Positions 55,785-58,700 of a stretch of DNA of 64,000 bases are shown in pieces. How positions within the stretch are numbered: position 1 is the stretch's first letter; every line of letters begins with the position of its first letter. Below the pieces are notes generated by a model. That model was given only the letters and a program-made list of their open reading frames with translations, searched no databases and was not told where the DNA came from. The stretch comes from Candidatus Moraniibacteriota bacterium (lineage in GTDB: Bacteria; Patescibacteriota; Minisyncoccia; Moranbacterales; GCA-2747515), in NCBI GenBank assembly GCA_046116545.1, contig CP175956.1:1025734-1089733 (forward strand), given 5' to 3'. The position numbers and the translations under genes are program-made.

Positions 55785-58700
55785 AAAAAGTTATAATGAT
55801 ACATTAGTATTTCTTGACTCAACGCTTCGCAGCGCTTCCATCTAAAACCTATCAACCTAGTCATCTTCTAGGGTATCTGTGCCTTATCTTGAATTGGGCT
55901 TCTCGCTTAGATGCTTTCAGCGATTATCCACGCCAAACTTAGCTACTCGACAATGCTCCTGGCGGAACAGCCGATACACCAGAGGTTTGTTCTTTCCGGT
56001 CCTCTCGTACTAGGAAAGACCTTTCTCAAGCACACACGCCTATAGCAGATAGAGACCAACCTGTCTCACGACGGTTTGAACCCAGCTCGCGTACCTCTTT
56101 AAATGGCGAACAGCCATACCCTTGGGACCTGCTCCAGCCCCAGGATGAGATGAGCCGACATCGAGGTGCCAAACTCCTTCGTCGATGTGAACTCTTGGAA
56201 GGAATTAGCCTGTTATCCCCGGGGTAACTTTTATCCGATGATCTTCCACACTCCTACAAGTGATGGTCGGTTCACTAACTTCTACTTTCGTAACTGGTCG
56301 ACTTGTATGTCTTTCAGTAAAGCTGGTTTATGCGTTTGCACTATCGGCCCGATGTCCATCCGGACCTAACCAACCTTTATAAACGCCTCCGTTACATTTT
56401 AGGAGGCGACCGCCCCAGTCAAACTACCCACCAGGCACTGTTCCTGCACCGGTAGCTATACTCAATACGATTTATAAAGATATTGTTAAATACTTTATTT
56501 TTTAGTAGAAGAAAACGTGTAGTATGTTAATCTTATCTTTTTAAGGATAAAATTGACATAGCTTATATCATCAGACGAATAAAATTATCTCCGCGCAGTT
56601 ATTCAATATTAATCACGTCAAAAACGCGTATCGAATGACCGCTTGTAGATTCCTATATTATAAATAATATAGAATTGATATACATAAAATAAATACATAA
56701 ATAAATACATAAATAAAATCTGTAGATCACTTTACTTTTCGCCTGAATGACATTAGTTTTCTCCTTGAGTACACCTAACGGTGCAAGGTTAGAATCAAAA
56801 CTTCAGCAGGGTGGTATTCCACTGGCGACTCCTCTGTCCCCTGAAGGACAGTATCAAAGTCTCCCACCTATTCTCGGCAACTAAAACTCTAATTCAATGC
56901 CAAGCTATAGTAAAGCTCCACGGGGTCTTTTCGTCTAGCTATAGGTAAACGGCATCTTTACCGTTATTGCAATTTCACCGAGCACCTGGTTGAGACAGTT
57001 CCCATCTCGTTACACCTTTCATGCGGGTCGGTATTTAGCCGACAAGGAATTTCGCTACCTTAGGACGATTATAGTTATCGCCGACGTTCACTGGCACTTC
57101 GGGGATTGGCGTGAACCGCTCCCGTTAATGTTCCAGCACTGGTCAGGTGTCACCCCCTATACATCCCCTTGCGGGTTAGCAGAGAGTTGTGTTTTTGGTA
57201 AACAGTCGGAAGGGCACTTTAGCTGCGCCCAACTTAATAAAAAGTTGGGAAGACATCTTGCGAACGTACGTCTAGCTTTTTTGCCGAGTTCCTTAACCAG
57301 GTCTCACTCATTCACCTTGGGCTACTCGCCCTATCTACCTGTGTCGGTTTTGGTACGGGCATTTATATATTGAAGCTTAGAAGCTTTTCCAGGTACTCTG
57401 CTCACTACTATTAATTCTACCGAAGTAGAACTTCTGTCCATATCTCGGACTTAATGTATGGCGGATTTGCCTACCATACGTCCCTAATATGTCCACATGA
57501 ATCCAATAACATGCAGTAGTTACTAAAATACGTCACTCCATCGCATATATAAACGGTACAGGAATATTAACCTGTTGTCCATCGACTACGCCTTTCGGCC
57601 TCGCCTTAGGCCCGACTAACCCTGGGATGATTGACATTGCCCAGGAAACCTTCGATTTTCGGTGTGTACGGATCTCACGTACATTGCGGTTACTCATCCC
57701 AGCATTCTCACTTCCATACGCTCCACCGGCGGTCGCCCGTCCGGCTTCGGTGCGGTATGGAACGCTCTCCTACCACGCAAAGATAAATCTTTGCATCCAC
57801 ATCTTCGGTATCATACTTAAGCCCCGTTGTATTTTCGGCGCAAGACCTCTAAACTAGTGAGCTGTTACGCTTTCTTTAAAGGATGGCTGCTTCTAAGCCA
57901 ACCTCCTAGGTGTCTGAGAAGTCTCACTTCCTTTCCCACTGAGTATGAATTTAGGGACCTTAGATTGTGGTCTGGGCTGTTTCCCTTTTGAACTACGAGC
58001 TTAGCCCCGCAGTTCTAACTGCTGTGATACGATCATGAGCATTCGGAGTTTGGTTAAGTGACCTATCTTGCGACGGACACTTATTCAGTAGCTCTACCTC
58101 CCATGATTAATTACACAACGCTAGCCCCAAAGCTATTTCGGAGAGAACCAGCTATTGCCGAGCTCGATTGGAATTTCTCCTCTACACACAGGTCATCCCC
58201 TGATGTTGCACGATCAGTGGGTGCGGGCCTCCCACAATTTTTACATTGTGTTCACCCTGCCCATGTGTAGCTCGCTCGGTTTCGGGTCTAGTTCATATGA
58301 CATATTCGCCTGTTACAGCTCGCTTTCACTGCGCATCTGCTACATAGTAGCTTATGCAAGCCATATAAAACTAACTCGCTGGGTCGTTCTGCAAAAAGCA
58401 CGCTGTCACCCATATAAATACGGGCTCCAACTCATTGTTAGTATATAGTTTCAGTTCTATTTCACCTCCCTCTACGGGATTCTTTTCACCTTTCCCTCAC
58501 GGTACTAGTTCACTATCGGTCTGATACAATATTTAGTCTTGGAAGTTAGTGCTCCCTGATTCAGACAGGATTTCACCGGTCCCGCCCTACTTGAGAATAA
58601 ACTCACCTATTATTTTTTCTTTTCATTTACAGGACTATTACCTTCTATGGTCACACTTTCCAGAGTGTTCTATTAAGAATAAATAACTGGCCCAGCTCTA

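Follow-up and report, generated by a model that had tools for sequence, protein, structure and literature searches.

Within the 64-kb stretch of DNA analysed here (the window), the 23S rRNA gene of a Candidatus Moraniibacteriota MAG has the terminal loop of helix 79 (H79) replaced by an extended stem-loop. An earlier note had described this segment as an AT-rich insertion, had pointed to CPR lineages as known for rRNA insertions (the host is indeed one of them), and had proposed for it an intervening sequence (IVS) excised by RNase III, a degenerate intron or a true expansion segment. What, then, is the insertion, and would it remain in the mature ribosome?

Results

The 23S rRNA gene spans positions 55782–59018 on the minus strand of the window, as matched by Rfam model RF02541 (LSU_rRNA_bacteria; 2492 bits, model positions 1–2925). 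It is 3237 nt long versus the 2925 positions of the model, and its sole large insertion is of 324 extra nt at H79. In the Rfam sub-alignment, the hairpin at model positions ~2226–2247 is capped by 'UUA' and 324 unaligned nt, after which comes CGGUGCAGG, the 3′ arm of H79 (56443–56451, minus strand); the 5′ arm, assigned from the Rfam structure line, is CCUUGCACCG (56779–56788, minus strand), and the pairs of this helix are invariant in nine of nine sequences. The insert between the arms occupies 56452–56778 on the minus strand (327 nt, 324 nt beyond the consensus loop), within 2 nt of the 56454–56778 read off earlier. The next hairpin, 22 nt 3′ of H79, is the P-loop helix H80, GACUGGGGCGGUC (56408–56420, minus strand; Rfam alignment and sequence), and the covariance alignment thus agrees with the earlier placement in the helix-79 loop adjoining the P-loop helix. 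The UAAU loop given for E. coli in the earlier note is seen at the same helix of its rrl gene (L029), which reads GUUGGCCCC-UAAU-CGGGGUUGC, the loop falling at ~2210–2213 in K-12 numbering (the offset being inferred from the P-loop Gs). An identical H79 5′ arm also occurs in an unrelated high-GC lineage, where the loop is UUAU or UGAU. Downstream of the 23S gene lies the 5S rRNA gene co-transcribed with it (55443–55550, minus strand; Rfam RF00001, 85 bits), and the insert is predicted to be transcribed as part of this 23S–5S unit.

The GC content of the insert is 26.3%, somewhat above the ~20% first estimated, versus 46.7% for the rest of the 23S gene and 33% for the window; it is near that of the spacer and the genome and away from that of mature rRNA (47%). 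As had been noted, the insert has no substantial ORF, the longest one wholly inside it encoding 30 aa. Tandem Repeats Finder (TRF) detected a tandem repeat at 56680–56717 (unstranded), with the 12-nt unit ATACATAAATAA in the plus-strand reading. The unit length had been recognized correctly, but the array is not the duplication it was taken for, since it holds 3.1 copies. The repeat was found in the window only, and is missing from the closest relative (L023) in the alignment of the two.

An independent JGI contig (L001) carries the identical sequence, so the insert is not an assembly artefact. Each of the other eight distinct relatives (L003, L005, L013, L021, L023, L025, L027 and L028) has a homologous insert of 182–276 nt in the same loop, and the truncated contig L017 bears an insert there too; no Moraniibacteriota-type relative lacking it was found among nine complete sequences and one truncated one. 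The sample of relatives is small and restricted to sequences that share the H79 stem; pyrF–23S synteny reaches relatives down to ~69% PyrF identity (L003, L005), and no longer holds at ≤63%. Across the relatives the identity of the 23S core ranges from 81 to 98%. The similar length of the inserts in relatives makes this a lineage trait and not a one-off insertion. The earlier note had allowed that relatives might turn out to have a loop of about this length here as part of normal variation; the lengths are similar, but the element is not an ordinary bacterial H79 loop. We conclude that the insert is inherited vertically, fixed in the clade and non-mobile.

The insert of the window folds with a minimum free energy (MFE) of −107.3 kcal/mol, versus −61.4±4.6 kcal/mol for 100 dinucleotide shuffles (z about −10), and nine of nine homologues fold well beyond their shuffles (z from −8.4 to −12.1). 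All nine share one architecture, in which H79 leads into a covarying trunk, then into an invariant helix that contains the 12-mer UCGUCUGAUGAU, and finally into a hypervariable branched crown. The trunk totals 43–52 bp in each of the nine MFE folds, the paired ends of the insert prolonging H79 as a rod by ~34–43 further bp (helices P1a, P1b, P2 and P3).

At the base of the trunk, in the MFE folds of nine homologues, the 5′ strand (56766–56777, minus strand) comprises P1a, UAG (56777–56775), and P1b, UGUACUCA (56773–56766). The 3′ strand (56453–56464, minus strand) comprises P1b, UGAGUAUA (56464–56457), a G, and P1a, CUA (56455–56453). Between P1a and P1b a conserved G (A in L013 and L028) of the 5′ strand stands opposite a G, and the conserved base of the insert as a whole reads GUUAG.UGUA ... 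UAUAGCUAC. In the alignment of homologues, 98.6% of P1b cells are paired, versus 32–52% in slid controls, and in five pairs both partners have changed; P1b scores 0.140 for covariation versus 0.073 for shuffles, with 0 of 500 shuffles reaching 0.140. The next helix in the MFE folds, P2, pairs AGGAGAAAAC (56756–56765, minus strand) with GUUUUCUUCU (56507–56516, minus strand). Its sequence is wholly swapped between subgroups, being GUAAAUU/AAUUUAC in L003 and GUGGACAAC/GUUGUUCAC in L013 and L028.

The 5′ strand of P3 (56739–56753, minus strand) consists of AUGUCAU, a bulged U and CAGGCGA, of which the core AG(G/A)CGA is kept in nine of nine homologues. Its 3′ strand is the 12-mer UCGUCUGAUGAU (56567–56578, minus strand), all of whose alignment columns are invariant. 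This is the best-conserved part of the insert, although it lies ~35 bp from the tip of H79; it occurs once in the window and once per relative locus. The invariant helix pairs CAGGCGA with UCGUCUG and includes AUGAU, a part whose conservation is unexplained by pairing. Several possible roles for the conserved sequence were considered and rejected. A kink-turn or C/D-box-like motif around CUGAUGAU is not supported, since the partner strand is without the required GA/CUGA in every homologue (by inspection only). An antisense site to rRNA was not found either: the 12-mer has no complement with up to three mismatches in the 16S rRNA of L016 or L028, and none with up to two mismatches in the rRNA genes of the window. 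Nor is it a signal common to the other non-intron insertions of the relatives, as it occurs once per locus, in the H79 insert only.

The crown (56579–56738, minus strand; 160 nt, 24% GC) is a branched distal domain with three predicted hairpins, the first of which contains the tandem repeat. Its divergence between subgroups equals the shuffled baseline, as does that of the 23S–5S spacer, while the flanking core is 90–98% identical. In close pairs, however, the crown hairpins show 2, 2 and 6 double changes and none broken, that is, compensatory change. Hairpins have been added at the junctions in L023, L027, L013, L028 and the window. Two of them lie on the 3′ strand in the window: side hairpin A (56523–56560, minus strand), which lies between P3 and P2 and is found in the window alone, and side hairpin B (56474–56496, minus strand), between P2 and P1b, which the window has in common with L023 only.

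These features bear on whether the insert has a function at all. A non-functional passenger, either a decayed mobile element or AT-rich filler made by slippage and tolerated in a permissive loop, could account for the AT-richness, the tandem repeat, the rapid turnover of indels and the random-level identity of the crown between subgroups. Yet purifying selection on structure is indicated by the conserved base, by the covarying trunk and by the invariant 12-mer with the strand it pairs with, and the insert was never lost in ~10 sequences whose 23S cores have diverged to 81–89% identity. A mobile element was also rejected upon search of the window: no second copy was found in the 64 kb, where only low-complexity AT matches were returned, and no transposon terminal features were seen on the insert. 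We therefore consider a passenger improbable.

The notion of an intron, degenerate or novel, self-splicing or protein-assisted, upon whose removal the H79 loop would be religated, gains some plausibility from the lineage. Group I introns abound in CPR 23S genes, many without an ORF (222 group I insertion sequences (ISs) are ORF-less; PMC11270868), and LAGLIDADG-bearing insertions are present in the relatives. Those insertions are patchy and occupy classical intron sites (L023 at ~1931, L025 at ~2593), and the CPR LAGLIDADG-bearing group I introns, at sites 1917/1931/1952/2593/2604/2657, reside in the same genes of close relatives, with homing-endonuclease ORFs, conserved core sites and a patchy distribution. 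The H79 insert shows none of these: it sits in a helix-capping terminal loop and not in conserved core sequence, it is distributed uniformly and vertically, being fixed in all sampled relatives, and the ORF search reveals no homing-endonuclease ORF or remnant. We could not detect a match between the insert and Rfam models of group I and group II introns or ribozymes, either at the gathering score or at E≤10, and the fold is a simple rod and crown without a P3–P9-like core. A hammerhead ribozyme was tried because CUGAUGA and (C)GAAA occur in type II order; it was rejected, since the stem II strands are unpaired and stem II cannot form, the conserved P3 helix already ties up the core nucleotides, and a search with Rfam returned nothing at E≤10. 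The intron proposed earlier is thus very improbable, and we are highly confident that the insert is a fixed, structured, non-intron extension of H79.

Discussion

Two fates are left to weigh for such an extension, excision as an IVS and retention as an expansion segment, and sequence data alone do not separate them. We favour, with a probability of roughly 0.55, an IVS-type fate, in which the insert would be excised by RNase III at a non-canonical site. RNase III would cleave the long duplex trunk during maturation of the pre-rRNA and the ends would stay unjoined; the crown, and perhaps part of the trunk, would be discarded. The mature 23S rRNA would then be in two parts, of about 2.2 kb and 0.7 kb, with tertiary contacts and either H79 or what is left of the trunk keeping them together, and the invariant P3 helix would be the processing determinant or a site used in assembly.

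Several observations are consistent with this fate. The replacement of a tetraloop by a stem-loop with complementary termini matches published descriptions of IVSs (PMC4990558, PMC8708148). The GC content is that of the spacer and genome rather than of mature rRNA, the crown diverges like the discarded 23S–5S spacer next to a well-conserved core, and constraint seems weak, to judge from the side hairpins and the tandem repeat specific to the window. As to the enzyme, rnc is retained in CPR genomes (PMC12641178) and a patescibacterial relative (L011) encodes RNase III; a search of the window for the RNase III signature motif found no such gene, which is uninformative given that the window is a small part of a 1.29-Mb genome. 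Most CPR rRNA insertions are absent from transcripts, according to Brown et al. (2015) as cited in PMC9297842, and Tsurumaki et al. suggest that ORF-less, non-intron CPR ISs may be IVSs (PMC11270868). We also sought transcript-derived contigs by exact look-up, in a sequence collection, of 12 spurious ORFs inside the 23S gene, and found none.

Other observations argue against excision. H79 lies outside the established IVS sites, helices 9, 25 and 45 (PMC4990558), and the insert is in every sampled relative, while classical IVSs are usually sporadic. An invariant 12-mer ~35 bp from the ribosome body would be unneeded in discarded sequence, as would be the kept length of the trunk and the compensatory changes that keep the pairing of the crown; and the 12-mer is not common to other non-intron insertions, so it gives no hint of a common nuclease signal.

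Some of the same observations lend weight to the alternative that the insert is a true bacterial expansion segment, which we regard as possible but less probable. The whole insert would then be kept in the mature 50S subunit as a rod of ~100–120 Å with a branched tip, projecting from H79, and the invariant P3 motif would serve for docking, be it of a ribosomal protein extension, of a further rRNA element or of a factor peculiar to the lineage. Such a segment would be expected to occupy one fixed site, conserved at its base and variable at its tip, as the insert does in nine of nine distinct sequences (cores 81–98%), to be strongly structured as a whole in every lineage and to grow by accretion, as the hairpins added at the junctions suggest. 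The trunk keeps its length despite the complete turnover of P2, the AUGAU part of the distant 12-mer is not due to pairing, and the crown hairpins are maintained. H79 is, moreover, a proven site of expansion, tolerated on the ribosome surface (ES31/ES31a/ES31b, PMC12368212). Against retention stand the spacer-like GC content, a crown that diverges as fast as discarded spacer, the recent slippage of the tandem repeat and the report that CPR insertions are mostly missing from transcripts, as Brown et al. (2015) are cited in PMC9297842. The size of the insert also has to be considered. Bacterial 23S rRNA rarely, to our knowledge, retains an insertion longer than 150 nt, which we count against an expansion segment; if retained, this one would be among the largest rRNA expansions that we know of in any bacterial large subunit.

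The excised fate that we favour places the insert beside the bacterial IVSs of Salmonella, Yersinia, Campylobacter, Leptospira, Coxiella and alpha-proteobacteria, in which, too, a helix-capping tetraloop has become a stem-loop with complementary termini. The insert is likewise AT-richer than rRNA, its trunk in all nine homologues is a duplex long enough to suit RNase III, its size (182–327 nt among the homologues) overlaps those reported (typically 100–200 nt; 428 nt in Coxiella) (PMC8708148, PMC4990558), and its host has a reduced genome with a single rRNA copy. Unlike these IVSs, it is found at H79, has no ORF, is fixed in a clade and contains an invariant internal motif far from its base, and its excision is a prediction. 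On the side of retention, the eukaryotic ES31L (ES31/31a/31b) is positionally equivalent, extending from the tip of the same helix with a conserved base, a variable tip and a branched distal part (PMC12368212). The bacterial insert differs in its independent origin, with sequence homology not expected, and in its spacer-like GC content, and its retention in the ribosome is only predicted; that it is a retained segment of up to 327 nt, and so a convergent counterpart of ES31L, seems to us possible but less probable than excision. Retained expansions of bacteria include the ~100-nt insertion in domain III of actinobacteria and mycobacteria (H54a), which is, like the H79 insert, lineage-fixed, vertically inherited and at a helix tip. 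Expansions of the H54a type are shorter than the H79 insert, have an rRNA-like composition and are present in mature ribosomes.

The insert also fits the class of uncharacterized CPR rRNA ISs (≥100 bp relative to E. coli, with neither a group I/II match nor an annotated ORF), of which Tsurumaki et al. (2024) count 469 ORF-less, non-intron members among 968 23S ISs (PMC11270868). The frequent non-intron sites in that survey, 23IS2 and 23IS4, correspond to known IVS sites; its available text does not name H79 and describes no such element in structural or comparative terms. About half of the roughly 1,000 CPR 23S insertions catalogued there are thus ORF-less, model-free and uncharacterized (PMC11270868), and the H79 insert supplies one such class with a defined site, a conserved architecture, an invariant motif and a vertical, clade-fixed mode of inheritance. 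If excised, it would define a fourth recurrent IVS site and indicate that the 23S rRNA can do without being continuous ~40 nt from the P-loop. Its retention would mean that a bacterium has a large expansion segment at the place where eukaryotes grew ES31L, which bears on the manner and the places in which growth of ribosomes is tolerated, and on the unusual CPR ribosomes. In either case, the H79 insert is usable as a lineage marker of Moraniibacteriota, and it may mislead 23S-based primers, length filters and rRNA annotation.

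An insertion in the loop of helix 79

The window carries a 23S rRNA gene (55782-59018, minus strand; Rfam RF02541, 2492 bits) with a 5S rRNA gene downstream (Rfam; 55443-55550, minus strand), and the Rfam scan found no 16S gene in the whole 64 kb. We noted that the 23S gene is 3237 nt long against 2925 positions of the Rfam model, and that the Rfam sub-alignment leaves 324 nt unaligned within the terminal loop of one hairpin (model positions about 2226-2247). Since the next hairpin to the 3′ side, GACUGGGGCGGUC, is the P-loop helix H80, the insert-bearing hairpin is helix 79 (H79), as the earlier note had proposed. 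Its arms lie at 56788-56779 and 56451-56443, and the loop with its insert occupies 327 nt (56778-56452; all minus strand, Rfam sub-alignment). The equivalent in E. coli rrl is GUUGGCCCC-UAAU-CGGGGUUGC, with the loop at about 2210-2213 in K-12 coordinates, estimated by reference to the P-loop Gs; an unrelated high-GC lineage with an identical H79 5′ arm has the loop UUAU or UGAU.

The insert is 26.3% GC, not the ~20% first put forward, compared with 46.7% for the remaining 23S and 33% for the window. The absence of an ORF is confirmed, the longest one wholly within the insert being 30 aa; the supposed 12-nt tandem duplication does have a 12-nt unit, but in 3.1 copies rather than two (56680-56717). 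The same sequence recurs identically in an independent JGI contig (L001), and the insert is therefore not an assembly artefact. The window holds no other copy of the insert.

The insert has no Rfam match even at E≤10, two matches at E about 8-9 being noise; group I or II introns and ribozymes were thus rejected, and we consider splicing of the insert extremely improbable. A resemblance to the type II hammerhead (CUGAUGA...GAAA) fails on stem II, and for a kink-turn the partner strand does not fit. The host is a CPR (Patescibacteria) organism, Candidatus Moraniibacteriota: the product of the OMP-decarboxylase-like gene upstream of the 23S shows 100% identity to an NCBI protein from a MAG of that name (1.29-Mb contig). 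In the survey by Tsurumaki et al. (PMC11270868) 469 of 968 CPR 23S insertions have neither an ORF nor an intron match. Operationally, the H79 insert falls in this already known class.

A conserved trunk under a variable crown

Relatives were recovered by pyrF synteny and by an exact-pattern scan of metagenome and genome collections, with the H79 5′ and 3′ flanks outside the insert as probes. The two routes yielded eight further distinct 23S sequences that share the H79 stem: three from MAGs labelled Moraniibacteriota (L003, identical to L026; L025; L027), one labelled Pacebacteria (L028), and four without a label (L005; L013, identical to L016; L021; L023). Every relative recovered, including L017, whose contig is truncated, has an insert in the same loop (182-276 nt versus 327 nt in the window), a count that applies to a sample of nine sequences and to probes demanding the same H79 stem, which leave out diverged-stem lineages with or without an insert. 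Insert-free matches in the scan came only from the unrelated high-GC lineage. Identity to the window is 81-98% in the flanking 23S core but only 46-62% in the inserts.

Individual folds gave a single architecture common to all nine inserts, each more stable than its dinucleotide shuffles (z −8.4 to −12.1). From the 9-bp H79 stem a U.C mismatch leads into a paired rod, the trunk, which starts with the 3-bp UAG/CUA (P1a) and a conserved G.G (or A.G) mismatch, and continues through P1b (8-11 bp; in L013 and L028 17-18 bp, continuation included), P2 (9-10 bp) and finally P3, where CAG(G/A)CGA pairs with UCGUCUG, plus an AUGAU of variable pairing. Side hairpins are optional at the trunk junctions, and one to three hairpins form a crown at the tip of the rod, enclosed in each homologue by 43-52 pairs, H79 counted.

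In the trunk alignment, 98.6% of cells hold standard pairs and five P1b pairs change on both sides, while in a control with the 3′ strand displaced by 1-3 columns pairing fell to 32-52%. The covariation score was 0.140 versus 0.073±0.012 after shuffling, and none of 500 shuffles reached it. The P2 sequences are wholly unlike between subgroups (GGAGAAAA/UUUUCUUC, GUAAAUU/AAUUUAC, GUGGACAAC/GUUGUUCAC), a turnover that we read as compensatory replacement, weaker than the P1b counts as these helices come from individual folds. At the level of sequence, the comparison establishes the insert as an extension of the H79 loop that is clade-fixed, inherited vertically and under structural constraint, and that would be transcribed within pre-23S; that it is a functionless passenger appears very unlikely.

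Invariant blocks stand within this fast-evolving insert: GUUAG.UGUA and UAUAGCUAC at the base, AG.CGA, and the 12-mer UCGUCUGAUGAU forming the P3 3′ strand (56578-56567, minus strand; alignment of homologues). The strand opposite AUGAU differs among homologues, with a bulged U, an A.A mismatch or a bulged A, and in L027 a 4-nt bulge; pairing alone thus does not account for the invariance of AUGAU. No complement of the 12-mer was found in 16S, 23S or 5S.

The crown, in contrast to these blocks, runs free: its identity between subgroups (0.45-0.53) is at the random level (shuffled baseline 0.44-0.55), as is that of the 23S-5S spacer (0.42-0.57). In the closest pairs, crown hairpins are kept with 2, 2 and 6 double changes and none broken. 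Two features make the window's insert longer than that of its closest relative, L023: a 38-nt side hairpin, and the tandem repeat, which lies in crown hairpin 1.

Fate of the insert

Bacterial intervening sequences (IVSs) are described as stem-loops with complementary termini that stand in place of a tetraloop and are cut without religation (PMC8708148, PMC4990558), and the H79 insert likewise replaces a tetraloop by such a stem-loop. We put at roughly 55% the probability that it is removed by RNase III in this way, leaving a fragmented 23S. In composition, and in how fast its crown evolves, the insert resembles discarded spacer, and the tandem repeat is a mark of recent slippage. Also counted for this fate are the retention of rnc in CPR genomes (PMC12641178), the reported absence of most CPR insertions from transcripts (as cited in PMC9297842), and the suspicion of Tsurumaki et al. 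(PMC11270868) that IVSs occur among ORF-less, non-intron insertions.

The listed IVS sites, however, are helices 9, 25 and 45 (PMC4990558), not H79. The insert may instead be an expansion segment retained in mature 23S, which we regard as the less probable outcome and hold only tentatively. Its fixation across the clade, the conserved trunk length, an invariant motif about 35 bp off the ribosome body and the compensatory changes maintaining the crown point that way. Moreover, eukaryotes carry the expansion segment ES31L on H79 (PMC12368212), so growth there is sterically tolerated. Possibly, cleavage at or near P3 removes the crown alone and leaves the trunk in place to extend H79, which would explain why P3 is invariant while the crown runs free. 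Retention in mature RNA, if true, would make the insert substantially more interesting.

The full-text literature searched describes no bacterial IVS or expansion at H79, although one may be among the unlabelled plotted positions of Tsurumaki et al.; nor did we find in it a conserved architecture or motif described for any ORF-less, intron-negative CPR insertion.

Other insertions and genomic context

Further 23S insertions are patchy among the relatives and absent from the window, whereas the H79 insert is constant. They lie at classical intron positions: L023 has one of 767 nt (932-1700) at about E. coli 1931, L025 one of 741 nt (1274-2015) at about 2593, L021 three, and L013 one of about 115 nt near H45. 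Those at about 1931 and 2593, some 740-780 nt long in close relatives, encode LAGLIDADG_1 homing endonucleases (ORFs 1003-1518, minus strand, and 1399-1875, plus strand; Pfam E 6e-24 and 4e-11), yet none attained the gathering score of the Rfam model for group I introns. The invariant 12-mer is absent from the relatives' other insertions. At L008, a more distant relative, a free-standing 23S_rRNA_IVP (PF05635) ORF lies amid small ORFs (18718-18996); BLAST detected no 23S gene at that locus.

The 23S-5S pair is predicted to form its own transcription unit, with a near-consensus promoter-like sequence (TTGACA-16-TATAGT, 59447-59420) and a terminator 3′ of 5S (55414-55397; both minus strand). Complementary 23S flanks (59059-59036 with 55729-55705, minus strand; 8 bp, internal loop, 12 bp) plausibly form the RNase III processing stem of pre-23S. 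L013, L016 and L028, which are more distant relatives, have 16S directly upstream of 23S; with none in the window's 64 kb, the operon is therefore split within the clade.

Directly after the 5S terminator lies a gene for a 902-aa FG-GAP repeat protein (52305-55013, minus strand), whose neighbour (51149-52195) belongs to no Pfam family. The OMP-decarboxylase-like gene upstream of the 23S has its start overlapped by 20 nt by a SLOG cluster4 (LDcluster4) gene (60877-61431, minus strand) that adjoins a phosphoribosyltransferase gene; the arrangement resembles a small nucleotide-salvage cluster preceding the rRNA unit. A 52-aa Cys-rich ORF (MAGVEIAKGYDRKIKEVEMPEACKTCEHKEKGCFEHCEFF...; ~59702-59860, minus strand), with no Pfam hit on record, directly follows the OMP-decarboxylase-like gene and keeps its position in relatives (L001, 11037-11195; L003, 11064-11222).
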